In this document: positions 7,755 through 55,607 of the stretch, in pieces
Layout: every line of letters starts with the position of its first letter
Numbering within the stretch: position 1 is the first letter of the stretch
NCBI RefSeq assembly: GCF_964204645.1
Contig: NC_134029.1
Coordinates: 13,790,850-13,854,849 of the forward strand
Length of the DNA stretch: 64,000 nt
DNA from: Tubulanus polymorphus
Lineage: Eukaryota > Animalia > Nemertea
Reading direction: 5' to 3'
The notes under the pieces: model-generated
Databases searched by the model: none
What the model was told of the DNA's origin: nothing
Seen by the model: the letters and a program-made list of their open reading frames with translations, nothing else
Position numbers and translations under genes: made by a program

Positions 7755-7769
7755 ATATTATATTTTGAT

Positions 7770-10880: not shown

Positions 10881-10897
10881 ATTTTTTCACTATATAA

Positions 10898-31200: not shown

Positions 31201-31967
31201 ATATCTAAAAATATAATTTCGTTCAATGTTAAGCCGGAACCTTCAAAATATCTTTCTTCAATAACGTTTAAATTAATTAAATATTTTTTCTAATTTACTA
31301 ATTTTTGGATATTCAACATCTGTTACAAAATCCATTATTTTGTCCATTATTTCAATAAATTTATTATAATCTTCTATAGTTGTACCTTTAAAAAATCTAA
31401 ATATAATAGCTGCAGGACCAATTTTACTACGTAATGTTTCTAAAATTTCAATTGTATCTTTTATTTCTAAAGAATCGATATAATTTCTAAATTTTTCCAT
31501 ATAAGGTTTATTTGAAATAGATTTAGTTATTTTAATAGATTTTTTTACTTTTTGAGATTTATCATCAAAATATTGTTCCTAAAATATTTTTACTTAAATT
31601 TTGTTGATATTTTTTTGATTCGAGATGTCTATCATAATTCCTTTTACTTATAAATTCATTACAAACATCGTATTTAATTTCATATTTTCTAATTGTACTT
31701 TCTTTCATTTGAATTTTCTGGAGTTTCACAATCTGTTACATTTTTCTGTGATTTGCAGTTTTTTCATGTCGAGACTTTTGTGATTTATCGATGTATTCTT
31801 AACAATATGGACAATAATATTGACTTTTATCAACATCAATTTTTTCTGTCTGGAACTCACTGTCTCCCATTTATATAGAAAAAAAAAATTACTTGTGGTG
31901 ACGAGTGGTGATGAGTGATTTGTCGACCTCTCGACCTCTAATCTGAAAACGTCATTTTGCAATTACT
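31200..31967 (-). repeat. Extended right TIR of copy B containing an inverted pPolB 5' region
   Basis: Reverse complement matches 38025-38440 plus 40675-41115 (e.g. NYIDSLEIKDTIEILETL...IGPAAIIFRFFKG). Confidence 0.8.
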
Positions 31968-33159
31968 TATATATTCTTCTATTCAAGTTTCTCGTTTTGG
32001 CAATATTTATTGTGGGATTTCTCGAGTTTATTCATCATACTCGGATATTGTGTTTTCTTCTCATCTCATAGAGGATATAACGATTTTGAAAATATTCATT
32101 TCTATTTCTGCTCCTGCCTCGGGATTCGCCTAACTCGGAAAAAATTTGACGGTCCCACGAGATCCGAGGTAAGCGAGTTTTACTGTATTTAGAGTAATGT
32201 TAGTGACACTTGATGAATTTTTACATTTTATTCATTTAGTCCGTATTGGAAATCCCGATTGTGGCAATCAATTCAATTAAAATCAATAAATTCTCCGGTT
32301 CCCGATTTAAATCATCAAAAATATTATTATAAAACCCGTTTTCAAAGTCAACAAGGTAACTAATCAATTTATTTGAGTACAAAGGTTTGGTTTGACACTG
32401 AAATTAGTTGTTGCATTGCAAAAAACAGGAGTTAACTTCTATATGAGTTTGGCGTCAGACGTTGTAGGGAACCGTAACAACGAATGGTATTCAGACTAGT
32501 AGTTGAACGTTATTCTAGTAGCCATCCGCGACTCAACGACCTTGATTGAAACTTGATCAACTCAAAATTTATTAATTGATCTGTTACGAAAATTGTACAC
32601 ATGTATTTAGCTAAATACACGTGTAATTTGAAATTACATGTGTACTTTTGACACGTATTTTGAAGTACACGTGTAAAACACGCGTATTTCTAAAATACGC
32701 GTTTAGTTTGAACCTGTATTTTGAATTACACGTGCACTGAATCACGTGCACTGAAGTTGTGAATTTAAAAATTATGTGTAAATTCAGTGAAGCTTCTGAA
32801 ATACACAATTTGGATTTGCAATCTGGATGCATGTACTAGAGTAATAGGGGTAATGGGCTTTCAGATCAAAGGTCGAACGGTCGAGCTCGTAAAAAATGAA
32901 AAACATGAAAATAATAACAATTTCTACTTGAATTACTCGCGAAACTCATAAAAAATGAAAAATAATTCTCGCACACTCGAATTTATTTTTCATTTTCTAC
33001 TCGCTAGAAAAAGTGTGAGTAAAGTGTGAGTGAAATAGTTTATATTTTAAACATATTTCAATATTTATATTTGTATGAGTTAGATTTTTAAACATTAAAA
33101 GTGTGAGTAAAGTGTGAGTGAAATAATTCATATTTAAATCAGTGAATATTTATATTTGA

Positions 33160-33807
33160 ATGAGTTTTGATAAAAATTTTGTTATAAAAATGAAGGCAGA
33201 AGAAGAACCCAACTTTAAAATCGAAATCAATGAAACCAATAAATCATTTTCACAGTTTTACATTAAAAATTATATTTCAGCAACAAATTTAGTGTCCGCA
33301 AGACATTATAAAATTGAAAATATTACTGTAATTAATCAAATATTATCAAATGAAACATATTTAATTACTGAACTAGTAGAAACTTTTGATAATGGTGTTA
33401 AAAATCCTAAAGTATTCAATACAGTTTTAAATTTTAAAGGAACTTTAGATGAAAACATAATTAATATTCTTAAAACTCCTTTCAATGAAAGAAATGATGA
33501 TATAATACTTTCAAAAGATTACAATGATTTGATTAACTTAAGAATTGAAAAAAGACAATTATATTATTTCAATTTTGATAATAAACAAATTATCTATAAT
33601 GAAAATTCATCAAATATTGGAATTCAATGTGAATTAGATAATGAAAAATCATTTAAAGATATTGCAGTTCAATGTAAATTAGATGATGAATTTAGAAAAT
33701 TCAATCCTAATGAAAAAGTGCATTGTTATTGCGGAGGTAAATATTTAAAATCACATAAATCAAAGCATTATGAAACAATTAAACATAAAAACTGGTGTAA
33801 AGAGTAA
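33160..33807 (+). CDS. Hypothetical protein, 215 aa, C-terminal CxC...H...H zinc-finger-like motif
   Basis: Open ORF in very AT-rich DNA; VHCYCGGKYLKSHKSKHYETIKH. Confidence 0.7.
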   Translation: MSFDKNFVIKMKAEEEPNFKIEINETNKSFSQFYIKNYISATNLVSARHYKIENITVINQILSNETYLITELVETFDNGVKNPKVFNTVLNFKGTLDENIINILKTPFNERNDDIILSKDYNDLINLRIEKRQLYYFNFDNKQIIYNENSSNIGIQCELDNEKSFKDIAVQCKLDDEFRKFNPNEKVHCYCGGKYLKSHKSKHYETIKHKNWCKE

Positions 33808-33860
33808 CAATTCTACATTATAATTATTGAATTGAGTTAAATGATTTAAATATCTAATAG

Positions 33861-34134
33861 ACTGTTAAAATGATAAATTGTTTGACAGTTAAAATGATAA
33901 ATTGTTTGACAGTTGAAATGATAAATTGTTTGAAAGTTGAAATGATAAATTGTTTGACAGTTGAAATGATAAATTGTTTGACAGTTGAAATGATAAGACA
34001 GCTGAAATGATAAATTGTTTGACAGTTGAAATGATAAATTGTTTGACAGTTGAAATGATAAATTGTTCGAATGTTGAAATGATAAGACAGTTGAAATGAT
34101 AAATTGTTTGACTGTTGAAATGTTAAATTGTTTG
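33861..34134. repeat. 24-bp minisatellite acagttgaaatgataaattgtttg (12 units, two shortened to 17 bp)
   Basis: Read directly; mirror array at ~35177-35474 has one extra unit. Confidence 0.92.
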
Positions 34135-34232
34135 GTTGTAAATTTAATTGTTATTTGATTTGAAACATATAAAAGTTAAATATTTCTAAAATATCAAATA
34201 TTTATCAATTTAATAATTTTTTTCTTAAATAA

Positions 34233-34451
34233 ATGGATGGTTTCATTCCAACTGGGAAAAGTGATTTGAAACATTATTTAGTTGCTGGAGGTTTAATTTT
34301 AGCTGCGCTTTACTTTTATTATGAGAATATTTCAAAAGATTTGATGAATGAAAATAATAAATTGAGTAAAAAATTAAAGAAGTTAAATGGAAACAATCAC
34401 AGAAATAAAAAGAATAAAAAAGTTAATGATTTAAATGATTTAGAGGATTAA
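34233..34451 (+). CDS. Small membrane-anchored protein, 72 aa
   Basis: aatttttttcttaaataaATG start identical in style to the Polinton genes; TM-like YLVAGGLILAALYFYY followed by a charged tail. Confidence 0.65.
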   Translation: MDGFIPTGKSDLKHYLVAGGLILAALYFYYENISKDLMNENNKLSKKLKKLNGNNHRNKKNKKVNDLNDLED

Positions 34452-34859
34452 AACAGCATCTTTTAATTTCATATATTTTGACTATAAAAATGAGTGAAAA
34501 TATATTAAACTTATTACATCTAATATATAAAAATCAACAGAATATTAAATCAATTATTATGCTTACAGGTTTATTTTCATTCTCAGTTTATACTATAAAA
34601 CAGTTGTTGGAATTCTATGATTGCTGTAAAATTAGATACACTGAATTAATAGAAAATATGAATATATAATTTATATCTTTTATTACAAATTTCACAACAC
34701 TTAATATTATTCAATCTATCTGAAATATAATTCATATTTTCTATTAATTCAGTGTTATTGATTTAATATTCTGTTAATTTTTATATATTAGATGTAATAA
34801 GTTTAATATAATTTTACTCATTTTTATAGTCAAAATATATGAAATTAAAAGATGCTGTT

Positions 34860-35078
34860 TTAATCCTCTAAATCATTTAAATCATTAACTTTTTTATTCT
34901 TTTTATTTCTGTGATTGTTTCCATTTAACTTCTTTAATTTTTTACTCAATTTATTATTTTCATTCATCAAATCTTTTGAAATATTCTCATAATAAAAGTA
35001 AAGCGCAGCTAAAATTAAACCTCCAGCAACTAAATAATGTTTCAAATCACTTTTCCCAGTTGGAATGAAACCATCCAT
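34860..35078 (-). CDS. Inverted duplicate of the 72-aa protein
   Basis: Identical translation to 34233..34451. Confidence 0.65.
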   Translation of the reverse strand: MDGFIPTGKSDLKHYLVAGGLILAALYFYYENISKDLMNENNKLSKKLKKLNGNNHRNKKNKKVNDLNDLED

Positions 35079-35527
35079 TTATTTAAGAAAAAAATTATTA
35101 AATTGATAAATATTTGATATTTTAGAAATATTTAACTTTTATATGTTTCAAATCAAATAACAATTAAATTTACAACCAAACAATTTAACATTTCAACAGT
35201 CAAACAATTTATCATTTCAACTGTCTTATCATTTCAACATTCGAACAATTTATCATTTCAACTGTCAAACAATTTATCATTTCAACTGTCAAACAATTTA
35301 TTATTTCAGCTGTCTTATCATTTCAACTGTCAAACAATTTATCATTTCAACTGTCAAACAATTTATCATTTCAACTGTCAAACAATTTATCATTTCAACT
35401 TTCAAACAATTTATCATTTCAACTGTCAAACAATTTATCATTTTAACTGTCAAACAATTTATCATTTTAACAGTCTATTAGATATTTAAATCATTTAACT
35501 CAATTCAATAATTATAATGTAGAATTG

Positions 35528-36175
35528 TTACTCTTTACACCAGTTTTTATGTTTAATTGTTTCATAATGCTTTGATTTATGTGATTTTAAATATTTACCT
35601 CCGCAATAACAATGCACTTTTTCATTAGGATTGAATTTTCTAAATTCATCATCTAATTTACATTGAACTGCAATATCTTTAAATGATTTTTCATTATCTA
35701 ATTCACATTGAATTCCAATATTTGATGAATTTTCATTATAGATAATTTGTTTATTATCAAAATTGAAATAATATAATTGTCTTTTTTCAATTCTTAAGTT
35801 AATCAAATCATTGTAATCTTTTGAAAGTATTATATCATCATTTCTTTCATTGAAAGGAGTTTTAAGAATATTAATTATGTTTTCATCTAAAGTTCCTTTA
35901 AAATTTAAAACTGTATTGAATACTTTAGGATTTTTAACACCATTATCAAAAGTTTCTACTAGTTCAGTAATTAAATATGTTTCATTTGATAATATTTGAT
36001 TAATTACAGTAATATTTTCAATTTTATAATGTCTTGCGGACACTAAATTTGTTGCTGAAATATAATTTTTAATGTAAAACTGTGAAAATGATTTATTGGT
36101 TTCATTGATTTCGATTTTAAAGTTGGGTTCTTCTTCTGCCTTCATTTTTATAACAAAATTTTTATCAAAACTCAT
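35528..36175 (-). CDS. Inverted duplicate of the 215-aa protein
   Basis: Identical translation to 33160..33807. Confidence 0.7.
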   Translation of the reverse strand: MSFDKNFVIKMKAEEEPNFKIEINETNKSFSQFYIKNYISATNLVSARHYKIENITVINQILSNETYLITELVETFDNGVKNPKVFNTVLNFKGTLDENIINILKTPFNERNDDIILSKDYNDLINLRIEKRQLYYFNFDNKQIIYNENSSNIGIQCELDNEKSFKDIAVQCKLDDEFRKFNPNEKVHCYCGGKYLKSHKSKHYETIKHKNWCKE

Positions 36176-36586
36176 TCAAATATAAATATTCACTGATTTA
36201 AATATGAATTATTTCACTCACACTTTACTCACACTTTTAATGTTTAAAAATCTAACTCATACAAATATAAATATTGAAATATGTTTAAAATATAAACTAT
36301 TTCACTCACACTTTACTCACACTTTTTCTAGCGAGTAGAAAATGAAAAATAAATTCGAGTGTGCGAGAATTATTTTTCATTTTTTATGAGTTTCGCGAGT
36401 AATTCAAGTAGAAATTGTTATTATTTTCATGTTTTTCATTTTTTACGAGCTCGACCGTTCGACCTTTGATCTGAAAGCCCATTACCCCTATTACTTACTA
36501 GGCTAAAGAATTTTTCTCATATTCGGTCACTTTTGTAAACTGCAATAAAATTTGTAATTAATTCATTTAGCTTCATATGATTTCAT

Positions 36587-38024: not shown

Positions 38025-38114
38025 AGTAATTGGGAAAGTAGGCTTTCATACCAGAGGTCGAGCGGTCGAGACACCACTCATCACCACAAGTAATTTTTTT
38101 TCCTAATAAATGGG
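38025..38114 (+). repeat. Left TIR of copy C (mate ~57034-57122)
   Basis: Near-perfect reverse complement of the right end up to the first ATG. Confidence 0.92.
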
Positions 38115-38439
38115 GGAGAATGAACACCAGCCAGAAAACAATAATGTTTATAAAAATCAATATTGTAAAAAATACATCGATAAATCCCAAAAATCACGAC
38201 ATGAAAAAACTGCAAATCATATAAAAAAAATGTAATAGATTTTGAAACTCCAGAAAATTCCAATGAAAGAAAAGAAAGATTAGAAAATATGAATGTGGAT
38301 GAAATAAAATGTGAAGTTTGTAATGAATTTATAGTAAAAAGGAATTATAATAGACATCTCGAATCACAAAAACACCGCCAAAATTTGAGTAATAATGTTT
38401 TAGGAAAAGATTGTTTTGATGATAAACCTCAACAAGTAA

Positions 38440-40672
38440 AACAAGAGCCCCAAGGGGCACAATGGCCAGCCTGTCAGATTTGCTTTTTATAAATGATGTA
38501 ATCTGTGGGTTATATTTATCAATATACACTCCCTGCTCAATATCATTTACAAAGTAAAATCGTGTGTTAACACAGACAGCAGGAACGAATGTAATATAGA
38601 AATACTAAGTTATTGTATTGTTCAACGCCCCCTGGTGGCCATTAAAAAAAACAATGAGCTTGAAACTCACCTCGATCATAGAACATGTCATGAGCTACAA
38701 CTTTCCAATTGATTATAGTAGCAAAATATGCTTAAGTATCAATTATGATGTGGAAAAACTTTTTTTCCACCTACGAATGAGTACTGATGACCCCAAGATG
38801 GCCGCCAGTGCGTCATAATTGCCTGGTCAAAAATACCCTCTCGGATATAAAAGATCCCTTTCCAAAGAATACCCATTACAAATTGCAATGAAACATGGCG
38901 CACCATTAGAAAGCTACACTACTCAGAATTCAGGCCAAAATTGATATTTTTGGGAACAAAAAAGGTCACAGTACGGCCATCTTGAGTCCGATCGACTCAA
39001 TTTTTCTCATGCCGATGGGCCCTCGGGGGATACAAATATATACGAATGATCAAGGTTATTGATAAAAGTGTCTTCAAAATTTCCTTCGAAAACTTCAAAA
39101 ATGTGTAAAAGTGCTGATTTTGGCGAACAACAATGGCTGCCAGTCGGCCATCTTGAATCTGACAGGGCCAGTTTTTGGCCTGAAGATGTGTCTAGGGTAG
39201 ATACACGTATAAAACAAATATCAAGACATTACCTTGAAGCGTCTTCAAAACTTTGGAACCCTCACGAACTATCTAGATGGTTATCTCTCGACCTCAATAG
39301 CTTCAAGACCCATCTCAAAACAACTTTGTTCCATGCAGCATACCATTAACTCTCGGAAAGCGAATTGTATTTAACATTTTTTGGCAGAATAAAATTTGAT
39401 AGAATTTGCAATTCGGGCACATGGCTAATTAGCATATCAAGGTCATACACCCGATTTGGTAAAACCTTTTTTTTCGCGAACCTTGCGCAATTGTCAAGGA
39501 TGAATTTTCTGTAGAGCAAATAAAAATTCCTCCCAAACACCAAATCAACTAAAGATTTCATAGAAATCGATCTTGAAATACAATTTTAAATCTTAAAATA
39601 AAACCCGGAAGTAAAACAGTAGACGATACCGCGGATTCACGTGAACACCTGATTTCTGTAAACGAAATGTTGGTTGTGACAAAATTGTTCAGACGGTTTT
39701 AGGTGGTAATAAGTACGGAAACGTAACGACCATGGTCGACTTAATCGATGAAATCAGGCCTGTGTGATATCCAAATTTTGACTTTTTTATTCTCCAGACC
39801 TCACTGATATAGAAATAAAAAATTTTGGTGGTACGAAAGTGCAATCACAGCGCCGATGGGGACAGAGCCGTGTCAGAGATCGGCGGAGTGAAAATTGAGG
39901 TGGACGAACACGAAGAAGTAGGCTATTGCGCTACTTAAATCACGAAAACTCCTGGCGCGGCCCCGACGCTCTTCGTTGATTAAGTAATACAAATATCATG
40001 CAATGGGTTTTCACAATCTACCGCTGGTATTTACCGGATTTCAATATCACTCCAAAATTCAAAGAAACCTCGAAATATCGAACCGGAACACTTCCGGTAG
40101 ATATCCGCGACTGCCCAACCGGGAAACTTATTTGTTTCAATAGATATTGATAGGATCCATCATCTTCACCCGTCAAGGGATTCGAACCCACTAAGCTAAA
40201 GCCATGCCAGAATCGGGTCGATCACAGCGCTTGTAACAAACCACATTAGGCTTCTGTGGAATTTACCAGTAAATGGGCCAATCAGCGAACACGTAGCGAA
40301 CGCGGAAGTATTGTCGCGTGTTGATACATGACGTCATGCGCAAAAGCGCCAGTAATGAAATCGCGATAATTCACGTGAACAGCTGCTGATATTTTCAGAT
40401 AAACCAATCACAGGGAAGACACAACTTCCTGATTGGCTGATAAAAATTGAAATTTTCCCGATTTAACTTTCGTGAAAAATGCAGAAAACATTTTTATGAG
40501 ACCCTATTTCAAAATTCTGCTCGCTACGATTCCGAGAATGGATTACGCTTAAATACGTGATTTGTTCGAATATGCCCTCACTTGGCAAGCAAAAGAGCCT
40601 TTTGTGTGGACACCATGTCATTTAAATTCGCTCCATTTGTATAGTAATAGGCTCAGCCTACGGCTGGCCTAA
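38440..40672 (+). mobile_element. HINE-like element, same family as 13564-15954 (one tandem unit)
   Basis: Same termini and internal sequence; interrupts the pPolB 5' region. Confidence 0.8.
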
Positions 40673-43600
40673 AAACCAACTTCAAAAACTAAATCCATTT
40701 CAAATAAACCTTACATGGAAAATGTTAGAAATTATATTGATTCACTAGAAATAAAAGATACAATTGAAATTTTAGAAACATTACATAATAAAATTGGTCC
40801 TGCAGCTATTATATTTAGATTTTTTAAAGGAACAACAATAGAAGATTATAGTAAATTTAATGAAATAATAGAAAAAATACTAGATTTGATAACAGATGTT
40901 GAATATCCAAAAATTAGTATCTCTGGGAAAGTAAGTTTTATAAAGTCAGAAGAAAAAATGAATTATAATATTCAAACACACTCTGAAGAAATAATTTCAA
41001 AAACACAAATAAAAGAGAAGTTAGAAAAAATATTTAATGAATTTAAACGTCATATTGAAGAAATATATTTTGAGGGTTCTGGCTTAACATTGAATGAAAT
41101 TATATATTTAGATTTAAATGTTTACAATACAAAAAGGAATAAAACATCAAAAAGTAATAAAATGTTTAAAAATGATTCAAACTTTACAACAGAAAAGGAT
41201 ATTAAAGCATCATCTTATATTAAATTACCATTTACAACAAAAGCAGTAATAAATGTTCAAAATGAAGATAATAAATGTTTTCTATGGTCAATTATTAGTT
41301 GTTTACACCCAACAGAAGATATGACGCATAGTTTTAGAATAACAAATCACCGGAAATATGAAACATTATATAAAATTGATCAATATCCAGTAACTATAAA
41401 AATGATTCCTAAAATAGAAAAAGTTAATAATTTAAAAATAAATGTATTTGAATTAATGCAATTACAAAAGACAAAAGGTGAAAATATTAAAGATTATACA
41501 TTGGAAGCTTTATATTTAACAGAATATTATGATGATGAAAATGCTATAGATTTGTTATATTACAAAAAAGATGAAAATGAACATTATATGTGGTTAAAAC
41601 AAATTGATTTATTCTTTAGAACAGAAAGTGATCACCATAATAAAATTTATCTATGTAGAAAATGTTTATCTTCATTTATGACTGAGAATAAATTATTAAA
41701 ACATAAAGAATTATGTGATAATAAAGATTTTTGTAAATTAATAATGCCAACAGAAAAAGATTATAAATTGAAATTTACTAATCATAAATTTAAGAATATT
41801 GTTCCATTTGTAATTTATGGGGATTTTGAATCGTTGAATAAAGAATTAACTGATCAAGATAGAAAAGAAATATATAACAAAAAGCAATTATTAAAATCAA
41901 TGGAAAAAGGAAATGAATTAAATGAAGACACAACACAAGACCCACCCATTATAAATACAATTAAAAAAGTTCACCAAAGAGCTGCTGCTTATGGAATTTA
42001 CATCAAATCAAATTATCCTGAATTATATGAAAGGGTAGTTAATGATTTTTGTGACAAAATGATTGAATTAGAAAGTGATTTTGCAAAATTATTAAACAAA
42101 AATAAAAGAATAGTTATGACAAAAGAAGATGAAATTGATTTTAATTATGCAACTCATTGTTGTTATTGTGAAAAACGTTTTTATTCATTTGATAAAAAAG
42201 TTAGAGATCATGATCATTTAAATTCAAAATATCGTGGAGCTGCTCATGAAGATTGCAATTTACAAGCTAAGAAAGTTAATTTCGTACCAATATTATTTCA
42301 TAATTTATCAGGCTATGATACCCATCTATTATTTATAAAACAATTATCGGGAAAATTGGGCACAATTAATCAAGAAATAGAAGAATATAATGCTATGAAT
42401 GGTGTAAATGTAAGAAAATATGATTTTAAACTATTAGCTAAAACATCTGAAAATTATATTTCATTTCAATTTGGTTGCATTAGATTTTTAGATTCTTATA
42501 GATTTCTAGCAAGTTCATTAGATAATTTATCAAAAAGTTTAGTTGATAATGATTTTGTTATCACTCGATATTATTATCCAAATGAACAAGATTTTAAATT
42601 ATTGAGATATAAAGGCGCAATTCCTTATTCATTTTATGAAACACACAATGATTTCAATGTAACAGAATTATTAAAAGATCAATTTTATGATCAATTAAAA
42701 GAGGAGTATGTGAAAGACGAAGTGTTTAATAGAACATTAAATATTTGGAACCATTTTAAGATGAAAAATCATGGCGAATTAGTTGATTTATATTTAAAAT
42801 CAGATGTTATGATATTGGCTGACATATTTGAAAAATTTAGAGAAGTTAATTTGAATCATTTTAATGTTGATCCTTGTTATTGCTACTCTAGTCCTGGTTT
42901 AACCTGGCAATGTGGTTTAAAATATACAAATGTAGAATTAGATTTATTAAAAGAACCAGATATGGTTTTATTATTTTAAAAATCAATTAGAGGTGGAATT
43001 AGTGGTGTTATGGGAGATAGATATTTTAAAGCAAATGATGAATATAAATTATTATATATTGACGCCAATAATTTATATGGTTGGGCAATGATGCAACCTC
43101 AACCATATAAAATTTTTATATTAACAGAAGTTGAAAATGGTGATAAAACTGATTGGGAAAGCGCAATTTCGAGTTTAAAAGATGAAGCACCAATTGGTTA
43201 TTTCTTTGTAGTTGATTTAGAATATCCTGAAAATATAAAGTTTAAAACAAGAAACTTACCTTATTGCCCAGAACATTTAACTGTAGATGATAGTTATTTA
43301 AGTGAATACCAGAAGAAAATAAAACCGAAAGATCATGTTTTTACAGAAAAATTAATACTTACTCAAAATAAAAAATACAATTATATTGTTCATTATAGAA
43401 TGTTAAAATTTTATCTAAAACAAGGAATGAAATTAAAGAAAGTACATAGATATATTGAATTTAATCAATCGAAGTGGTTAGAAAAATATATAGATTTCAA
43501 TACTCAACAGAGAACAATATCAAAAACAGATTTTGAAAAAGATTTCTTCAAATTAATGAATAATAGTTTTTATGGTAAAACATGTGAAAATATAAGAAAT

Positions 43601-43855
43601 AGAAATGATATTGAATTAGTAAATAATTCTGAAAGATTAAGACATTTACAATCAAGTCCTAGACATTGAGGAAATAAAAGATTAGAAGATTATTTAACAG
43701 CAGTTAAATTAAAAAGAACGTCAATGAAATTCAATAAACCTATATTTATTGGTTCAACTGTTTTAGAAGTATCAAAATTATTAATGTATGATTTTTATTG
43801 TAATGTTTTACAACCACTTTTTGGGGAAAAGCATATTGAAATATTATATTTTGAT

Positions 43856-44919
43856 TCTGTAACAGCTGACACCCCAATATTATTAAAATGTAATGATAAA
43901 ATATTGATAAGAAGAATTTCAGAAATAATTCCAAAACAAAATGAATGTTATATTTCATATGGTGAAAAAGAATTAATACAAATAAATGGATTAATAGATG
44001 TTTGGACAAGAAATGGATGGAAAAAATTAAAGAATATTATTAGACATAAAACAAATAAGAAAATCTATAGAGTTAGAACTCAATTAGGATTTGTAGATGT
44101 TACAGAAGATCATAGTTTAATTAACGAAATGGTGATGAAATAAAACCAACTGATATAAAAATTGGAGATGGATTATTACATAAAAGATTTTTCCAAAGAA
44201 TGAATCATATGTCATTTGATGAAATAATATATAATATTTATAATATAGAACCCGAAACATTAGAAGAAAAAGAATATTTTATCAGAGGATTTTTCATGGG
44301 TGATGGTTCAGCAGGTGTGTATAATTATGTTTGGGGTAATAAATATTGTTGGTATTTATGCAATCAAGACTTAAAATTATTAGAAAGAATTAAGAAATTC
44401 TGTGAAGAAGTTTATTCACATAAAACATTTAGAATCATGGATCATATGAAATCATCAGCAGTTTATAGAATACTTGTAAATAATCCTAAAGATTTTGCTA
44501 TAAAATATAATGATGAATTCTATATTCATGCAATAGTGAAAAGTAATACTTCAACTTAAGAAAAGATAGTACCAGATTATGTATTAAATGCAAAAAATAA
44601 TTTAAGAAAATGGTTCTTTATTGGGTTCTATGCTGCAGATGATTCAAAAAGTTTCAAAAACCGCAAAACGATATCTTTAGCTCAAAAAGGAAAAGTTGCT
44701 ATATCAGGATTGAATATATTATGCAATTCATTAGGTTTTAATATGAATATTGGATTGATTAAATCTAAACCAAATTGCTTTAATTTAAGCCATGTAGAAA
44801 ATGAGTTAACAGAAGAAGTTAAAGATTTATTTGAAATATATAACCCAACAGATTATGTTTATGATTTATCAACTGAAGATGGTACATTTAATTGTGGATT
44901 TCCATTAATTGCCAAAAAT
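43856..44919 (+). other. Intein (~355 aa reconstructed) with LAGLIDADG homing endonuclease in pPolB motif C
   Basis: Block A SVTADTPILL, block B VDVTEDHSL, FIRGFFMGDGS and FLIGFYAAD LAGLIDADG blocks, block F/G YVYDLSTEDGTF...LIAKN, +1 Thr; one frameshift (~44125) and one stop (44557). Confidence 0.92.
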
Positions 44920-45371
44920 ACGGACGCCTACATACTAAAAATCAAGACAAATGACATAACAAAAGACTTAAAAACATTAAAACATCATTTTGATTTTAGC
45001 AATTATCCCAAAGATCATGAACTATTTAGCAATGATAATAAAAAGATTCCTGGTAAGTTTAAAGATGAATTAGGGGGCGATGAAATGATTGAATTTGTTG
45101 GGATAAGAAGTAAAATGTATAGTTACAGAACAAAAGATCATGAAGCTAAAAAGTTAAAAGGAATAACAAAACATGTGGTTGATAAACATATAGAATTTCA
45201 AAATTATATAAAGTGTTTATATAACTCAATTGTAATGAAACATAAAATGAATTGTTTAAGATCAGAAGATCACGAGATGTACATTAATGAAGTTGAAAAA
45301 ACTAGTTTAAATCCATTTGATGATAAAAGACATATTTCAGATGATGGTATAAAAACATTACCTTATGGCCA

Positions 45372-45650
45372 TTAAAACAGAAAATCAATATCATCATACT
45401 CGAAATCACTATTGGCTTCTTCATTTTCATTTAATTGTTCTTGTATAATTTGTTTAGGTTCTTCCATTTCATTTTTCTCATTTAAATAAAGTTCTATCTT
45501 GTGCCACATTTCATCTCGCTCTCTTTGTTTCTTTTTGTTTGTTAATTCGTCAAATGGAATTATAATATCGATGTTTAAATAATTTACAATCTTATTTAAA
45601 AAGAATTCATAATTAATTGAATCTGTTATTCTATTTTCCAAATGATACAT
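45372..45650 (-). CDS. Hypothetical acidic-tailed protein, 92 aa
   Basis: Open ORF packed between the pPolB stop and the zinc-finger gene. Confidence 0.5.
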   Translation of the reverse strand: MYHLENRITDSINYEFFLNKIVNYLNIDIIIPFDELTNKKKQRERDEMWHKIELYLNEKNEMEEPKQIIQEQLNENEEANSDFEYDDIDFLF

Positions 45651-46700
45651 TAATATTTGTTTGAATATTTTTTTTTATATTTTCCATATCTTCTTCTGTT
45701 AATTTAGGTTTTTCATAATAATCGTTAAATAATAAATATAAATACATTTTCTTTTGTTTTGTGTTAAATGTTGACGGAATCATTGTTTTTATAATATCTT
45801 TTTTAGTTATTTCACCATTTTTATTTTCTAATATCTTCATTTTTTCAAGCCATTGCATATATTCTGGTGTATGATCTTCTATAGAAAATATTTTAAAAAT
45901 TTCATCTAGATAATTTAATTTTGGATCTATGTGAAAATTTTTAGGTTTTTCTCCACCCCATAAATTCTTTTGCCATCCACAATCAACACAAAATAACACA
46001 GTACCTTCTTGTCTTAAGGTCGCGTAATTACATTGTGGGCATTTTCGTTTATAATTTATTGGTAATAGATCTTCATTAAGCTCTTGGTATTTTCTTACGT
46101 TTTCTTTATGTTTTATTGTTCTATTATGTAGATTTGAATTACTTGTTGTAATAAATAATTTACAATATTTACAATAATATGTTTTTCTTGTTAATTCATT
46201 ATATTGTTTTTCTAACTTTTCAACTGTTTCTTTATTATCTGGTAACGTTTTCTCATATTTCATTTTTTCTAATAAATTATTTTTTCTTTCATTGAATTCA
46301 GTTTCAAATTTATTAGAAATTTTATCTATATGTACTTTACGAAATTGATGATTCTCCTAATCTTCTATATTTTCAGGGCTATATTTTATTCGACAAGGCT
46401 CACAGAAATGATCTTTTATATTATCCTTATCATAGAATAAAAAAGGTATTTTCCAAATAATTTCAGGTTCAACTTCAACAGAATTACTATTACTTTCGTT
46501 ACTATCAACATTAGCCGTTGCGCCATTAATTTTACACTTCTCTGAATGTTTTTAACATAATTTCTTGAGAATAATTTATTACATTTTGGACAGTTTAGTT
46601 TGGGGGGTTTATAATTTTCATCATGTTTTTTCATATGTCGAGCCATATTACTTTTTCTTAGAAGTTCACCGCAAATTTCGCATGGTATCTTCTCATCCAT
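45631..46700 (-). pseudogene. Multi-zinc-finger protein (C2H2 plus Cys4 ribbon), split into 94-aa and 210-aa pieces
   Basis: CEICG...HMKKH, CPKC, CKYC...H...H, CPQC...CVDCG; TAAATG start at 46700. Confidence 0.7.
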
Positions 46701-46768
46701 TTATTAAGGAAAAATTTTATTAAAATTAATTTTTAGTGATGAGCGGTAATTTTTTTATGTTATAAATA

Positions 46769-47512
46769 ATGGTAGAATTAAAAGAATACAGAATATTTGT
46801 TGATTCTAGAAAACTTACAAATTATAAATCAAATAATTTAATAGTTCAATTAGATAGAGAATTTAAGAATTGTGTTGATTTAAAATTAGAAAATATAAGT
46901 TTATGTAACTCATTTTACAATATATCGGATAAAAGTCTAGAACATTTAATTTTTTCAATCTTTTACAAAAAGAGGAATAAATGGTTTTTTATATATTTAA
47001 AACCAGGATTATATAATTTAGATACATTAGCACAAGAAATTAATAGAAAAGCTCGAGCTAAATTAGGAAGTGATTCCGGATTTAGTATTAGAATTTTAAA
47101 AAGTGATAGTTCTAAAAAAATAAAGATTAGGTTAGCTAATGACGAACAATTTAGATTTACAGTAAGAAAACCTATAGGTAAACTGTTAGGAATTAACCCA
47201 GATATTGTTACAGCATACGCAGAAGGTAAATCAAACTTAATACCTTTTACACATTTTTATATTTATTGCAATTTAATTGACCCAACAAAAACATTTGAAG
47301 CAACTAAAGATACAATTTGTAATTCTAGTATATTAAATATTTTACCATTAAAAAATGTTAAACAATTTGGAACGCAAACTGAATGTGATTTTAAACCTTG
47401 TACTCCACATTTCAATAATTTTAAATTAGAAATAAGAAATCATAATGGTTATTTAATTGATTTGAATGACTTTCCTGTAATTTATGAATTAGTTATAAGA
47501 TGTAAAGAGTAA
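46769..47512 (+). CDS. Penton / minor capsid protein
   Basis: IFVDSR...NSFYNI...PGLYNLDTL...LLG...IYCNLI...IRNHNGYLIDLN pattern and 247-aa size resemble Polinton-type pentons. Confidence 0.7.
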   Translation: MVELKEYRIFVDSRKLTNYKSNNLIVQLDREFKNCVDLKLENISLCNSFYNISDKSLEHLIFSIFYKKRNKWFFIYLKPGLYNLDTLAQEINRKARAKLGSDSGFSIRILKSDSSKKIKIRLANDEQFRFTVRKPIGKLLGINPDIVTAYAEGKSNLIPFTHFYIYCNLIDPTKTFEATKDTICNSSILNILPLKNVKQFGTQTECDFKPCTPHFNNFKLEIRNHNGYLIDLNDFPVIYELVIRCKE

Positions 47513-47528
47513 TTTTTTCACTATATAA

Positions 47529-47885
47529 ATGAATATAACTGTTGGACCGAGTATATGTTTTGGATTTGATTTTAAACGTGAGAAAGAAATGAAATTTAAC
47601 ATTAATGATGTAATTACACATATCAAAAATATAACATTTTCTAATGAAACAACATTTGAGTATGAAACAACAATAGATAAAGAAACTTTAAATGTAGAAA
47701 AGATTACTAATTTAATTAGAGAATCTTTAAGATTTTATGAATTAGATGAAGATTTTATCATAGATGATATTAAAAACATATTAACCGAAATATATGATAA
47801 TCATAAAAGTAGCAATGAAATAAATGTTGAATTAATCATCACTAAAATAACTAAATATTTTGAAGATAGTAATTTTTTTGATTAA
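47529..47885 (+). CDS. Polinton hypothetical protein, 118 aa
   Basis: Open ORF, TAAATG start, homolog in copy B. Confidence 0.7.
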   Translation: MNITVGPSICFGFDFKREKEMKFNINDVITHIKNITFSNETTFEYETTIDKETLNVEKITNLIRESLRFYELDEDFIIDDIKNILTEIYDNHKSSNEINVELIITKITKYFEDSNFFD

Positions 47886-47888
47886 TAA

Positions 47889-48110
47889 ATGAGTGATAAT
47901 AAGTGGATAATAACTGGATTATATAATGGCGCATTACTATCAGTTGGAATTGTTGGTTATTCAATGTTATTAAAATAAGTATTCAAAATGGGAAGTGTTA
48001 ATGTTGATAGATTTGATATAAATGATATCTTAAAATTAACATTAGCAGTTACTTTATCTAATCTAACTATTGATTATTTAGAAAAACAAAAATATATTCC
48101 TCCCATATAA
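47889..48110 (+). pseudogene. Small hydrophobic protein (homolog of 11236..11457) with an internal stop
   Basis: Nucleotide similarity to the copy B ORF. Confidence 0.65.
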
Positions 48111-48134
48111 ATGCATAATTTTTTTGCTAAATAA

Positions 48135-48557
48135 ATGGCTTCTACAATTATAACTATTAAAGGATCGGCAATTGTTAACGCTTTAGCATTTACTGGTGGT
48201 GGTTATTTATTCAAGCATATTGATAAAAATAGTTCATTAGGAGAACAAAGAAGACATAACTTAGCATTAGAAAAATACAATAAAGCAGCAGAAGAATATA
48301 GAGAAAAGAGGCAAAACTATATGGATTATATTAATAAGGAATTATATGATCAGAAGATTTCACATAGAGATTTTCAATCAGTTGATGATGCAATGAGTTT
48401 ATATAACGCGGTAACCAATAAAGAAAAATTACATCTATACAAACCTAAATTATCAGATTATTATACCCCAAGTAAAGAACAACAGAAATATGAAATAATA
48501 TGGATTTTAGGTGGAACTGTTATTGTTATATTTGTAGCATATAAATTAACTAATTAG
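48135..48557 (+). CDS. Polinton protein, 140 aa, hydrophobic ends with a central coiled coil
   Basis: SAIVNALAFTGGGYLF...RHNLALEK...IWILGGTVIVIFV; homolog at 11481. Confidence 0.75.
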   Translation: MASTIITIKGSAIVNALAFTGGGYLFKHIDKNSSLGEQRRHNLALEKYNKAAEEYREKRQNYMDYINKELYDQKISHRDFQSVDDAMSLYNAVTNKEKLHLYKPKLSDYYTPSKEQQKYEIIWILGGTVIVIFVAYKLTN

Positions 48558-48578
48558 TAATTTTTTTTTGCTAAATAA

Positions 48579-49014
48579 ATGGAAGATAAAGTTGATAGTA
48601 TTGATATTATTCCTCATGATATAAATAAAACTAAATTAAAAATATATTTAGAAAAACAAATATTAGAATTTGAAAGTGACTTAAAGATAAAAAAGAAAAA
48701 ATATTTAAAATCTTAAAATTATATATTATTTGATTATAAGTGGTTCGGTTACAATTAGTTCTGTAATAACATTTCTAGCAATATTCAGTCCATTAACACC
48801 TTTAGCTATATCAATTGGTGTATTAGGATTAAGTTCAAGTGTTTTAACTGGTATAAGTTCAAAATTAAATATAAAAGGTAATAAAGAAAAAATTAAAACA
48901 AATATAAAAGAAATTAATAAATTGAAGAATACACTAGATTATACAATAAGTTTAAATGGTCATATAACAGTTGAAGAACAAGATAAATTATTAAAAAAAT
49001 TAATAAATTATTAA
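48579..49014 (+). pseudogene. Two-TM small protein, frameshifted
   Basis: Homolog of 11923-12363. Confidence 0.65.
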
Positions 49015-49026
49015 TTTTTTAAATAA

Positions 49027-50413
49027 ATGGTAGATGGTTTTCCAAAAGCTTTCCAATATAATAAATCCATTAAATATAATATTCCAGCAATAGATTTTAA
49101 TAAAGATATTACTTATATAGAAATGAAGTTTTAGATTCATTAACTAATTTAGAAACTTATGTTACTGAAACTAATAATTTTAATGCAAAGATGGAAAATA
49201 TATTTCATGTATATTTAATTAATTTTAAAAAATTGAAAGTTGAAAAACAATGGTTATAAAAATCTAATATGAAGTACTGACAGAACCAATTAAATTTTGC
49301 TGTTTATTGTGCAACAACAGGATGTGGAATTAGTTGGAATGATCATTTGAATAATTCTAAATATAAATTAATTCAAAGTTTATTTAGATTTCATACATAC
49401 TTTCAAATCAGAATAATATTAAATGAATTAGAGTGCGCTTTACCAGGATCTAGGTATTTTAAAGAATTAGATAATAATATTAATTTATCAAAGTTTTATA
49501 AAATTTGTAATGAATTTAATATAGATATAAATAATTCTGATTTTAGAACAAAAATTGGAACAATAAGATCACTTCCTTGCCCTAAAAAGATTGCAGAATA
49601 TTGTGCACTTCCCATACCATCTAATAGTTTTTATAATATCTATAGTAATAAATTAGGTTATGGTAAAATAGAAACTAAAGATTTAGAAACATTAAATTTC
49701 AATAAATTACCGACATTTTATGATAATTTAAAACAAGAAAACAATAATGGTTGGGTTTATTTCATTTTAGAAAATAATGAAGGTTTTACAAAATCAGGTA
49801 TACAAAGAATAAATTAATCTATTAGAACTTATTTGATATGTATTTTAGGTGTGCAAGTTGAAACAAGATCCCCAATAATTGGAAATTTAAATACATCATT
49901 TGATGCACAGAAACAATTCAAAGTATTATTTGAAGATTCTATTCATAATGATAAAATAAATCGATTCCAGAAAACATTGTAAGATATCAAAATTATTTAG
50001 ATAAATCTCATGTAAGACTAAATTATTGTATAGGCCCTAATCTATTAATTATTTCTAATGATTTAGTACTAAAGAAGGGAAACATAATTGGTTACAATAA
50101 TCTAATTAAAACTGCAACAATAAATAATTCATTTGGATTAAATGATATAAATAAAAAGATTATTACCGCTCCAAAATTAATGGAAGGTGAAAAAAATAAA
50201 AAACATATTCAATCAACAGAAACTAAAACTAAGAATATTAAATTAAATAATGATTCTAAACCGGATTATAATACATCAGAAAATATTAAAACTGATAATA
50301 TTCAACATGATATAATTAAAACTGATAATGATAATAAATCCCATGAAAATACTAAATTAGCTTTAACTTGTATAGGAATTGTTATAGGAGGAATATTATA
50401 TTTTAAATTTTAA
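49027..50413 (+). pseudogene. Conserved Polinton protein (LNFAVYCATTGCGIS), C-terminal TM, disrupted
   Basis: Pieces 49347..49817 and 50180..50413; homolog at 12379. Confidence 0.7.
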
Positions 50414-50429
50414 TTTTTTTATTATATAA

Positions 50430-51893
50430 ATGGATGTAGAAGGTGGAGAAGATATTGGAATGGATAATTTTGATGAACCTGGCATAACTGATGAACAACA
50501 ACCTGATTTTAGCGAAACAAGTTATAATGATGGTAATGAGCCAGGATATAATAATAATTTAAATATGCCTGATTATATTAAAAATGCAGAATCACAATTA
50601 AATCCTGAAAATTTAGATCCAGATTTAGTAAAACAAGATTTAGATAATTTAAACAAAATAGAGAAATTAGAATATATAATTGAAAATTCTAAACTTAACA
50701 TAAATGATGAAGACGTTGGACCTTTAGCAGATAAATTAAGATTTTTAGATAATGGTGAATGTTATTATCGTTTGAAAGGTGATTATTATATTGATATCTC
50801 TAATCAAAGGACAAAACTAAAAAAAATATTAGCGGAATCAACTTTGAAAAATTTAGAAACATTTAGAATTAAGAGAATAAGTAATAGTAATGAAATAACT
50901 GATGTTACACAAAAAGAAATAGATGATAATATAGACGTATTTAAACAAAGAATTAATGAATTATTTGAAATAATCAAAAAGAAATCAGAAACAGAAACAA
51001 CTTCTGAACAGAATATAACTTCCAAAACTAGTAAACTTAAATCCAATAAAGTTTCAATTGAAAAACTTTTACCGAATGGATAAATTGATGCAACAGATCA
51101 AGAATTAGAAGGTTTAAATAATATATTTTCTGTTGAAGCAATTAGAGAAATTAAAAGTATAAGACTTGCATCTGATAAAATTGCACATGATAAAAGTATA
51201 AGAGATTTTTAAATTAGAACTTTAGAAAAAGAATTAACTGATAAAAATAAAGAAATAGAACAATTAAAGTCTGATTTAGATCATCAAGTAATTGATGAAA
51301 TAGAGTATAGGCAAAAAGAATTACGATTAGAAAAAGAAATTAATAATTTAAAAGATAATTTAGAAGTACAGAAAGAAGAAATTAAATTATTATCAAAATC
51401 ATATGATTATAATATAAATAGATTAAAAGTTATTTTTAAAGATTTGTTGATTAAACCAAATTCTGAAATATCATTGAAAGATAGAATAAAATTATTATTT
51501 AAATTAGAAGGAATAACAATTCTTTCAATTCTAACTGCTGTAACTATGTTATTTACAACAATTGGTTTAGCTGTATCAAATGCTTTGAAATCTACTCCTA
51601 CTCCCAATAAACCAGATAAACCCCCAGATAATAATTCTATACAAGATAAAGTTAAAGATGGTTTAAAGAAATTAGCAAAATATTTATGGGAACTATCTAA
51701 AAAATCTGCTGCAGCTTTACCAGGAATTATTGCATCAATTGTTGGTTTTATATTGAAATCTGCTGGGAATATTCTTAACTTTGCTGCTGAACATATTATT
51801 TTATTTCTAATTACAGTTGTAAGTGCTATTATTTTTGGGTTAGTGAATATGATATCAAAAAGATATCAAGAAAAAATAATAAAAAATGAATAA
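50430..51893 (+). pseudogene. Acidic/coiled-coil protein with C-terminal membrane segments, disrupted
   Basis: Pieces 50430..51083 and 51444..51893 (GITILSILTAV..., ALPGIIASIVGFIL). Confidence 0.7.
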
Positions 51894-51913
51894 TTAATTT
51901 TTTTGTTAAATAA

Positions 51914-53112
51914 ATGAGTGGGAGTTATATAAGTCCTTCTAAGATTTCTAGAATATCTAATGCTATTAAAGCAGAAAGATCACATCATATAATTACTCAT
52001 AATCCTTCAAATATTAATCCCGATGAAACTTTATATGTTAGAATTCCTCGATTAACACAAAATACTTTTTATGTTCCAAATAGTATTTATTTATCAGCTG
52101 ATATAAAAGTAACTGGTTATGATAATAATTATGTTGTTGATAATGTTGGGAGATATTTGATTAAAAAATTAACCTTAAAGATTGGTCCAGAAACAGTTTT
52201 CTCATTAGATGATTATAATTTATTTATGCATTATAAAGATTTATGGTTAACTAAAGAAAATAGAAATAATATGATATTTCAGGGTATTCAATCGGAAAAC
52301 GATAATAAATTAAGATCAGGAGCTAATGACGCAATAGTAACTCGTGCCACAGATAATTTGATTAAAAAGATTTATGGAAGCAAATATAAAATTCCATTAG
52401 ACTTTGAATTGATAAATAATAATGCACATTTATATAAATACGCAATTCAAGAAGATATTATATTTGAGATAACATTTGCTCCTGTAAATGAAATTGTATT
52501 ATCTAGCGTTGTTAAAGATATGTGTGATAAATTATCGAATATATGTTTAGAATATGACACAGTAATGAAAATATTGCTAGCACAATTCAAACTCAATACA
52601 ATCAAGGATTTTCATTATTATATGATTATATTGATAAATTTAAAACTGTAACTATTAATGCAAATGATGAAATAATTAATGAGAATATTAACTTCCCAAG
52701 AAGATCTATTAAAGGTATATTAATATTTTTTACCATTGCAACATATTCTAATGGTGCAATAAAGGTAGATAATTATTATAATCCTGAAATAACAAAAGTA
52801 GAAATAACTATCGAAGGAATAGCAAATAAAATATTTTGTCAAGGAATGAGAATGATAGATCAGTGGCCAGAAATTAGAAAACATTTTATGAATGAAAAAG
52901 TAAAATCATTTGAAAATTGTAATATTAATCAAATTGATTATTATTCCGGCAATAAATATGCATTATGGTTAGATTTTAGAACAACAGAGGATAATTCATT
53001 ACATGGTTCTGGGAAAAAACTACAGAACACTAAAGATGGAATACAATTATTCATGGCGAAGAAAAGAGGAGACAAAAATTTCAAAATGCACATTTATATT
53101 AAAACAAGATAA
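51914..53112 (+). pseudogene. Major capsid protein (putative), frameshifted and 3'-truncated
   Basis: HNPSNINPDETLYVRIP, IPLDFE, LSNICLEYD, YNPEITKVEITIEG, ALWLDFRT...LHGSG resemble invertebrate Polinton MCPs as I recall them; ~400 codons; adjacent to the integrase. Confidence 0.7.
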
Positions 53113-54118
53113 ATTAGATAAGATAATCCCACAAAATTTAGTTAAATATAAAGATATAAATGAATTTATGTTAGAACAACCAACATACACAACACATAAA
53201 AAAATTGTTAGAAAATATAAAACTCGTAAAACTATGGTAAGTTATGTAGATCAACAGTGGCAAGGAGATTTAATTGATATGAAAAATGTTAAGAAAGATA
53301 ATGATGATTATTGGTGGATATTGAATATAATTGATATTTTTAGTCGTTATGTATGGAGTTTCCCACTTTATAGAAAAGATGCTGTACAAACATCAAATGT
53401 TTTAAGAAAATTTCTTTCGGATGATAAACTAAAACCAGAAAAAATACAATTTGATGATGGAAAAGAGTTTGATAATTCACTTGTTCATGAACTCTTAGAT
53501 AATCATAATATTAAATATTTTTCAACAAAATCGGATAAAAAAGCAGCAATTGTTGAACGATTTAATAGAACATTAAGGACAAGAATGTGGAAATATTTTA
53601 CAGCAAATAATACTTTTAAATGGATTGATGTTTTACCAAAATTGATAGAAGGATATAATAATTCTTATCATTCTTCTATTGGAATGAAACCTATTGATGC
53701 TAGAAAACCTGAAAATGCTGAATTTGTTTGGAATAATTTATATGGAGCATTTCTTGTAGATGATTTTGGTGAACCTAAATTTAAAGTTGGTCAAAATGTT
53801 AGAATTTTTAAGTATAAAAAGATATTTGATAAAGGATACGATCGAAATTTTACTAGAGAAATATATAAAATAAAAAAGGTTATAACAACAAAACCATATG
53901 TCTATAAATTAGAAGATTTAGATAGTGAAGAAGTTGATGGCTACTTTTACGAAGAAGAATTGAGTTTAATTACTGAAAATCTAGAACAAGAATATAAAAT
54001 TGAAAAAGTATTAAAAACAAAAACTACTAAAAGAAAAAAATATTCTTTAGTAAAATGGGTTGGATGGCCAGATAAATTCAATGAATGGATATTATCAAGT
54101 AAAATTAAAAATATATAA
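53003..54118 (+). CDS. Retroviral-type (rve) integrase with C-terminal chromodomain; native N-terminus probably lost
   Basis: DDE triad WQGDL / QFDDGKEF / IVERFNRTL; chromodomain YKIEKVL...LVKWVGW; the first ~33 codons are off-frame MCP sequence. Confidence 0.9.
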   Translation: MVLGKNYRTLKMEYNYSWRRKEETKISKCTFILKQDKLDKIIPQNLVKYKDINEFMLEQPTYTTHKKIVRKYKTRKTMVSYVDQQWQGDLIDMKNVKKDNDDYWWILNIIDIFSRYVWSFPLYRKDAVQTSNVLRKFLSDDKLKPEKIQFDDGKEFDNSLVHELLDNHNIKYFSTKSDKKAAIVERFNRTLRTRMWKYFTANNTFKWIDVLPKLIEGYNNSYHSSIGMKPIDARKPENAEFVWNNLYGAFLVDDFGEPKFKVGQNVRIFKYKKIFDKGYDRNFTREIYKIKKVITTKPYVYKLEDLDSEEVDGYFYEEELSLITENLEQEYKIEKVLKTKTTKRKKYSLVKWVGWPDKFNEWILSSKIKNI

Positions 54119-54725
54119 ATGAATAAGGAATTATTTATATTTGAGCCTCATAATATGTTAATTTCTGGCGTAACAAATTGTGGAAAAACTTATTTTATAT
54201 TAAATTTATTAGAAACTGTTTATGAAAACTATTTTGATAATATAGTATTATTTTGTCCAACATATGAGAATTTAATCAAACTTATGATAGAAATATTACT
54301 AGAAATAATAAATTTATTATATTAGATCCTAAAACAGTAAAAATTTAGATAATTGTATAAAAATAGCAATTGTTATTTATAAAGGATCAAATACATTATT
54401 TATCATAGATGATTGCGCAAATTTACATGATTCAAAAGTTAGAGAAAGTGAGTTATGTTATTTAGCTTTCTCTGGGAGACATTTTGGGATAACAACTTGG
54501 GTTTTAAATCAAAAATATAATTCAATTGTTAAAGATTTTAGAGAAAACATTAGATTTTTAGTATTATTCTACAATAAAGATAGAAAATCGATGAAAAATG
54601 CGCTTGAGGAAAATGATATTATTCCACATGATATACATAATGAATATATGGATAAGTTGAAAAATATTATAAGATCAAAATTACTATTTAGATTACAACA
54701 CCCATTTAAATATGAATTTATTTAA
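54119..54725 (+). pseudogene. Packaging ATPase, frameshifted
   Basis: Near-identical to 222..830 with indels near 54268 and 54342. Confidence 0.88.
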
Positions 54726-55007
54726 ATTCAACTAGCTTGTTAATCTAGTTGAATTCTAGTTACATTCTAGTTGAATTCTAGTTATTGGTAGTTGTAACAA
54801 AAATCAACTAGATTTAACAATATTTTAACTAGCTTGTTAATCTAGTTTAATTCTAGTTACATTCTAGTTGAATTCTAGTTGTTAGTAGTTGGAACAAAAA
54901 TCAACTAGATTTAACAAGAAATAAACAAAAACAACAATATTTCAACTAGCTTGTTAATCTAGTTGAATTCTAGTTGCAACAACACAACTAATTTATTTGT
55001 TATATAA

Positions 55008-55607
55008 ATGGGAGGTGAAAAGAAAATAAAAATCTAAAAATGGTGATGTTCCAATTGAAAAAACGATTTAGGAATAACAGAAACAAAATTAACTCCAGAT
55101 GATGGTGCTTTAAATAATGTTACAACAAATAATAATTATGAATATTATCTTTATTGTAAACATCAATTAGAAATATAAATAGCATCTGGAAAATGTAAAA
55201 ATTTTGTCGGTAAAAATTTAACTTATAATGAATTAGATACAATGAAATCAGATGAAATTATTAGATTATTTAAGATTTATGAAGCCGCGAGAACAGCTAG
55301 AATTAATGACGCGATATCAGAAAATGTAGTAAAAGGTTATAGTAAATTATGTAATTATATACTACCAATTGAAGATGAAAATAGATTATATTCCGATTTA
55401 AAAAATGATTATTTAGTTATGACTGAATTAAATAAATGGATTGGATATTTATCATTTCAATTAGGTGGATTTATGACATTATTATCAACTGGAGTTATAA
55501 CATTTTCAAATATTGAAAGTAAAAATATTTCTATAATAAATGAACAAGGCGGAAGAAGTGAAGGAATTAACTGTGAAGAAAAAACCGAGATCACAGAAAC
55601 AAATTGA
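55008..55607 (+). pseudogene. Homolog of the 201-aa protein, frameshifted near its 5' end
   Basis: Matches 1114..1719. Confidence 0.8.

Follow-up and report, generated by a model that had tools for sequence, protein, structure and literature searches.

A Palindromic, Non-Autonomous Polinton Derivative of Probable Fold-Back Origin in the Nemertean Tubulanus polymorphus

Introduction

How does a short DNA element that carries no polymerase or integrase gene, and that consists almost entirely of two inverted copies of one sequence, come to reside in a chromosome with its own target-site duplication (TSD)? This question is raised by a 3,656-bp element (positions 32840-36495) in a 64,000-nucleotide stretch of the nemertean Tubulanus polymorphus (NCBI RefSeq assembly GCF_964204645.1, contig NC_134029.1, positions 13,790,850 to 13,854,849 of the forward strand), hereafter called the window. 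Three Polinton copies, designated A, B, and C, lie in the same window. An original prediction, made from the letters of the window, regarded the element as a hairpin satellite of a Polinton virus that keeps only the cis-acting origin and integration signal and borrows a helper's enzymes. The analysis described here identifies the element as a real, young, non-autonomous Polinton derivative with a fold-back shape, and not as an autonomous Polinton. The element is probably a fold-back (snap-back) defective Polinton genome that was integrated by the integrase of a helper.

Boundaries, Termini, and Enzyme Content

The first bases of the element are AG and the last are CT, and the 6-bp direct repeat TACTAG lies on either side, a match expected by chance at ~4.5e-4 at the composition of the flanks. 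These coordinates, ends, and TSD are the ones originally predicted. The left and right flanks are unrelated to each other, and the element is located between Polinton copies rather than nested in one, ~870 bp from the end of copy B and ~1,530 bp from the start of copy C. Bases 1-46 match the left end of copy C at 37 of 46 positions without gaps, exactly as predicted, and match the ends of copies A and B at 31 of 46 positions each. Copies A and B themselves match the copy C terminus at 36/46 and 35/46, respectively, making the element's end equally close, while the best 46-bp match in the window outside of Polinton ends is 25/46. A BLASTN alignment between the element's terminus and the left end of copy C ends at base 46, in keeping with the prediction that similarity stops there; beyond the terminus, however, that prediction fails, for the start of one of the element's open reading frames (ORFs) carries a Polinton gene-start motif.

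The element was found to be devoid of the genes that a Polinton would use to replicate, integrate, and package itself. No polymerase gene was detected, and the longest ORF (215 amino acids) has no family match. There is no match to the rve integrase family, which is readily recognized in copy C (E 4.3e-10), and none to the capsid or packaging ATPase genes of copies A-C or of L001, a related Polinton. The predicted lack of polymerase, integrase, and capsid genes is thus borne out, and together with the Polinton-type ends and the element's own 6-bp TSD, it implies dependence on helper enzymes, as was proposed.

Arms and Loop

Gapped alignment of the two arms yields 1,741 paired columns at ~99.7% identity, the inverted repeat takes up ~98% of the element, and the outermost 1,094 bp are identical between arms. 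The element had been described as an inverted repeat in its entirety, and this description holds for the paired columns but overlooks several imperfections. Specifically, the arms differ by four substitutions (34009, 34496, 34500, and 34535), the right arm has one additional 24-bp repeat unit and lacks 82-83 nt relative to the left, and 66 unpaired nucleotides form a loop above an inner stem of 26 perfectly paired bp. The mismatch at 34637 borders a gap and was treated as a scar rather than as a fifth substitution. A 202-nt spacer obtained by ungapped search was rejected in favor of the 66-nt loop given by the gapped alignment. The center of the element folds as expected in a folding prediction, and a single strand can snap back into one long stem, again as originally envisaged.

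The substitutions are clustered centrally, with three of the four falling in the innermost ~85 of the 1,741 columns (P 4e-4 to 2e-3 in a post hoc test). This central bias suggests that the inverted structure is older than the present insertion. Such clustering is not expected of a fresh fold-back or of a read chimera; compatible causes are repeated copying corrected from the open end, a long terminal inverted repeat (TIR) of some age, or host mutagenesis at the center of a palindrome. The positions of these and the remaining features are collected in Table 1.

Table 1. Features of the palindromic element and of the adjacent Polinton copies, in window coordinates.
Feature	Position	Strand	Basis or remark
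Left TSD copy, TACTAG	32834..32839	+	direct repeat
46-bp Polinton-type terminus (putative origin and integrase site)	32840..32885	+	37/46 to copy C, 31/46 to A and B ends
Left arm	32840..34663	+	aligned to right arm
ORF205	33190..33807	+	intact; 215 amino acids from ATG 33160; C-terminal CxC...H...H zinc-finger-like motif at 33724-33786
24-bp tandem array, 12 units	33860..34134	+	repeat search
Gene-start motif (T-tract, AAATAA, ATG)	34211..34235	+	matrix score 14.1
ORF72	34233..34451	+	ORF call; hydrophobic stretch judged by eye; no homologue
ORF59	34490..34669	+	terminates one codon beyond inner stem
Left-arm-only segment, 82-83 nt	34555..34637	+	gap in right arm
Inner stem, 26 bp	34638..34663	+	perfect pairing with 34730-34755
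Unpaired loop, 66 nt	34664..34729	.	ORF59 phase open on minus strand; contains CxxC
Right arm	34730..36495	-	alignment, ORF and repeat positions
Broken ORF59 copy, right arm	from 34821	-	early stop plus gap
ORF72, right arm	34860-35078	-	ORF call
24-bp array, right arm, 13 units	35177-35475	-	repeat search
ORF205, right arm	35528-36145	-	ORF call
Terminus, right arm	36450-36495	-	counterpart of left terminus
Right TSD copy, TACTAG	36496..36501	+	direct repeat
Copy A right end (inverted left end plus polymerase start)	3492..3753	-	sequence comparison
Copy B right end (inverted left-end sequence of the family, ~765 bp, reaching into polymerase gene)	31203..31967	-	sequence comparison
Polinton copy C	38025..57122	+	TSD GGCGTA; TIR ~93 bp; integrase ORF whole; capsid, ATPase, and polymerase-region genes broken

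Genes Carried by the Arms

The arms are more than a cis-acting signal. The intact reading frame of ORF205 would arise by chance at ~1e-10, and its guanine-cytosine content at the three codon positions is 0.32/0.22/0.13, relative to 0.30-0.39/0.23-0.29/0.11-0.13 in four genes of copy C. Cys/His fingers resembling the one at its C-terminus are also encoded in copies B and C. In addition, many genes of copies A, B, and C are preceded by a motif consisting of a T-tract, AAATAA, and ATG, and the start of ORF72 possesses the same motif. Using a matrix trained on 18 starts of copies C and A only, including 10 without a clear motif of their own (leave-one-out score <6), the ORF72 start scored highest among the 74 ATGs of the arm (14.1, versus 7.6 for the best of 735 non-Polinton ATGs), and none of 2,000 composition-matched resamples reached this value. 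The motif recurs in the related Polintons L001, L003, and L005, and in L001 all 22 bases ahead of one gene are identical to those of ORF72. As a side observation, L001 carries at 10340-10981 a 213-amino-acid ORF that appears deoxynucleoside kinase-like by eye and has the same gene-start motif. Both terminal ORFs of copy C have their ATG where the TIR (38025-38117 and 57031-57122) ends, which places their start motif within the TIR.

At the center of the element, a reading frame is cut. On the plus strand, the ORF59 phase meets a stop one codon past the stem, and on the minus strand, it stays open through all 22 codons of the loop, including a CxxC that resembles the fingers of the neighboring Polinton family. 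This arrangement fits a gene cut by fold-back, a weak argument when taken alone. With the ORF72 start motif as the strongest link, and with the zinc finger and codon profile beside it, the arm is likely to be the accessory-gene-bearing end of a sister Polinton. The notion of a parasite stripped to its origin and integration signal is therefore not supported, since the arms hold genes of Polinton style and the center interrupts one frame.

Searches for Relatives

The element's ORFs had been predicted to lack homologues in the three Polinton copies, and a tblastn search against the remainder of the window agrees (best E 0.14). In a library of representatives, ORF205 gave 14 matches (E 2.7e-7 to 8.2e-4), every one of them centered on the finger, and the 10 that were inspected are essentially without names. 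The only match of ORF72 among PHROGs was weak, to a family of unknown function (E 5.7e-4). The best ORF205 score in the Atlas, 0.88, is a lead at most, phage records contained no relative of ORF205, and none of eight candidate stretches in viral contigs held one. Profiles from NCBIfam and PHROGs returned nothing meaningful for the element's proteins, and Rfam had no match in the element. A single-sequence structure model of ORF205 (mean predicted local distance difference test score, pLDDT, 34.5) was not used.

Twenty related Polinton loci were recovered through ATPase-anchored metagenome scans, while viral contigs gave no usable locus. The exact end of the element was found in none of the 20. 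These loci have core genes in common with copy C and differ in their accessory genes, making it plausible that a parent of the element has escaped detection.

Origin of the Palindrome

In the explanation that we favor, ~1.9 kb from the end of a related Polinton would have been self-duplicated by fold-back copying to give the element. A strand undergoing protein-primed, strand-displacement synthesis would halt ~1.9 kb in, fold back, and copy itself to the end, thereby producing one terminus twice. Once displaced, such a strand could pair along nearly its full length and make the origin at its open end double-stranded again, allowing the helper polymerase and terminal protein to recopy the hairpin around its loop. 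Because a 6-bp TSD implies the joining of two ends, the integrated form would derive from the full double-stranded palindrome through the action of the helper integrase. Replication and integration are more likely to have been parasitized than packaging, given a length of about one-fifth of a Polinton; vertebrate Maverick sizes vary by only ~10% (PMC8097293), and an element about one-fifth the size of copy C argues against packaging in helper capsids. Copy C is an unlikely present-day helper, as its polymerase region, capsid gene, and ATPase gene are broken and only its integrase ORF is whole.

Fold-back copying may have given rise to either of two outcomes. It is a real possibility, if somewhat short of an even chance, that the element belongs to a multi-copy, spreading family of integrated snap-back Polinton parasites, in effect heritable defective-interfering genomes, whose hairpins would be copied by a helper's protein-primed polymerase and re-inserted by its integrase. 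Two intact small genes would then be retained under the helper's gene-start signal, a corollary held just as tentatively. A single fold-back event that never spread is the less probable of the two outcomes and, by itself, unlikely. The neighboring copies may be informative about fold-back copying. Copy B parallels copy C as far as 55899, beyond which ~765 bp of inverted left end complete it; in copy A, an inverted left end comes after a C-type right end; and copy C has just its 93-bp TIR, such that inverted left-end copies terminate two of the three Polinton copies in the window. If these inverted ends belong to A and B, then copy-back of the left end has occurred in two of three copies, and the element, coming from a sister family, would carry the same process to an extreme.

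Several observations weigh against the fold-back explanation and are best considered together. For copies A and B, whose left ends and TSDs lie outside the window, the inverted ends could instead be independent truncated insertions. One copy of the element was seen in the 64 kb, and microhomology at the loop amounts to just 4-5 A/T bases. Little weight attaches to the open frame of 22 codons in the loop, two of the six loop frames being open, and start-motif scores are weak for ORF205 (4.8) and ORF59 (4.5), close to the mean resample maximum of 4.4. No relatives of ORF205 were found beyond its zinc finger (none of the 444 candidates at E 0.01 in a search with its 215-amino-acid form), and the homologue search for ORF72 gave no candidate. 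The three element ORFs were likewise missing from the 20 ATPase-anchored loci (E 0.023 at best), although these loci show no Polinton end and so test little, and the terminus pattern had no matches in viral and metagenome contigs. Finally, a deletion within long TIRs yields the identical final structure.

That last point introduces the most serious competitor, in which a full-length Polinton with ordinary TIRs of at least 1.8 kb, carrying accessory genes, was inserted and subsequently suffered an internal deletion; the TSD would date from the insertion of that full-length Polinton, and the shortened version would never have moved. The scenario was acknowledged in the original prediction, and butterfly Polintons with gene-containing TIRs of ~2 kb (10.1101/2025.02.07.637071) keep it alive. 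Vertebrate Maverick TIRs of up to 1,447 bp, with accessory regions beside the core (PMC8097293), the 765-bp inverted end of copy B, and the crowding of arm differences at the inner end, which an old long TIR would also explain, all point in the same direction. Yet such a deletion would have to remove all core genes and leave only 66 unpaired bases, no core-gene remnant is present in the element, and a second loss of 82-83 nt, 26 bp away, would be needed. Moreover, the identity of the outer 1,094 bp would confine both events to a short time. Taken as a whole, we regard internal deletion as unlikely, albeit well within the range of explanations to be taken seriously.

The remaining alternatives are much less probable. 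Amplification is known to create artificial palindromes in long reads (PMC6218980), and an assembly artefact from fold-back chimeric reads of the whole-genome-amplification type would account for the symmetry. That symmetry, however, ends exactly at AG...CT within a 6-bp repeat and between unrelated flanks, and a read chimera would have no reason to stop there; between the arms there are also an in-register repeat-unit difference, a long gap, and substitutions in a cluster, which leaves an artefact only a slim chance. We attach a similarly slight probability to the idea that the host retains the locus, whatever its origin, to supply hairpin RNA directed against Polintons, within a cluster of decayed copies. 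Four Polinton-related insertions do occur within 57 kb, and a read-through transcript would form a 1.7-kb duplex, but the match to the neighboring family is limited to 46 bp plus a short motif, no Rfam family was matched, and selection can hardly be judged from an element that appears so young. Least probable, and already largely refuted, is a foldback-type element, or one resembling a miniature inverted-repeat transposable element, from another DNA-transposon superfamily (cf. Foldback/Galileo) that came to lie among Polintons by chance. In its long arms with a 24-bp array, the element does resemble Galileo, whose TIRs are likewise long and internally repetitive (PMC3573991), whereas the 6-bp TSD, the AG...CT ends, the 37/46 terminus, and the Polinton start motif all speak for a Polinton derivative.

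Other Features of the Window

The integrase of copy C combines the rve domain with a chromodomain. The family's ATPase was recognized through a Pox_A32 match in copy A and its capsid gene through a weak Capsid_N match. For the polymerase of copy C no profile matched, and its region presumably encodes a family-B enzyme, judging from its motifs. This region (43724-45375) holds an intein, with an N-terminal splicing region (TIGR01445; 34.1 bits versus a cut-off of 24.5) that continues with a LAGLIDADG-like stretch (E 0.0011), and its counterpart in copy B lies at 7747-8854.

Additional repeats were observed in and around the Polinton copies. An element with 154-bp repeats has inserted into copies B and C (13550-15958, 27143-28646, and 38426-40676), its two long copies being 95.6% identical over 2,109 bp. 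Two 145-bp tandem arrays are located within copy B (30179-30923) and directly ahead of copy C (37236-37998). Copy B is split by an element resembling a long interspersed nuclear element (endonuclease plus reverse transcriptase; 17315-23540), and a Pao-type long terminal repeat element (59620-64000) follows copy C. The joint presence of these two element types and of Polintons would by itself suggest an animal genome.

Implications

A model proposed on the basis of sequence (redrawn in 10.64898/2026.07.28.741278) has animal Polintons replicating by way of a single strand annealed to itself, and a fold-back product integrated together with a TSD is the trace that such replication would be expected to leave. 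The element likely marks the 46-bp end as a minimal signal. Should a multi-copy family exist, Polinton enzymes would act in trans on a 46-bp end, and, with similar elements in other animals, it would represent an undescribed and recurrent class of Polinton parasites that gene-based surveys miss by design. Indeed, surveys that demand core genes (PMC10748475) or a gap of many kilobases between TIRs (PMC11131425) would pass over elements of this kind. A single deletion remnant, on the other hand, would be a mere curiosity.

Comparison with Known Systems

Non-autonomous Polintons, gene-bearing TIRs of ~2 kb, and snap-back genomes are all known already, and the integrated whole-palindrome form is the part that was not found in print. 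No integrated whole-palindrome derivative of a Polinton was encountered in the literature covered; the founding Polinton papers and the Repbase/Dfam entries were outside its scope, and some of those entries may be palindromic.

In Repbase-style names, "N" denotes a non-autonomous element, and palindromic left-end derivatives of a protein-primed linear replicon are familiar from yeast, where the pGKL1 hairpin plasmids exist as free molecules. The element resembles Polintons/Mavericks in its 6-bp TSD, TIRs, AGT-type end, and accessory genes near the ends (PMC8097293, PMC10748475), and it shares its terminus and gene-start motif with the local Polinton family. Polintons/Mavericks are 13-25 kb in length, whereas the element is 3.7 kb and lacks polymerase, integrase, ATPase, and capsid genes, and its end, AGTAAT, is one base off the doubled AGT common in Polintons. 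Vertebrate Mavericks have TIRs of 46-1,447 bp and 6-bp TSDs (PMC8097293), and a range of 100-1,500 bp has been quoted for Polinton TIRs (PMC10748475).

Closer parallels come from shortened elements. The name Polinton-1N1_DR (PMC9341505) would denote a non-autonomous Polinton, and Halocafeteria possesses fragments bearing TIRs and TSDs that perhaps depend on complete copies (10.64898/2026.07.28.741278). Like the element, these have retained ends and TSD, have lost core genes, and are proposed to rely on a helper; unlike it, they are not described as whole-element palindromes in the passages covered. Butterfly Polintons (10.1101/2025.02.07.637071) have arms of similar length, with each TIR gene present twice, but they are full-length and hold core genes both inside the TIRs and in the stretch that separates them, where the element has 66 nt between its arms. 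Finally, snap-back defective viral genomes are an established class (PMC13506859), and snap-back or copy-back genomes share with the element one end duplicated in inverted orientation around a small loop and a need for helper enzymes. Those genomes are free molecules, whereas the element is integrated in a chromosome with a TSD of its own.

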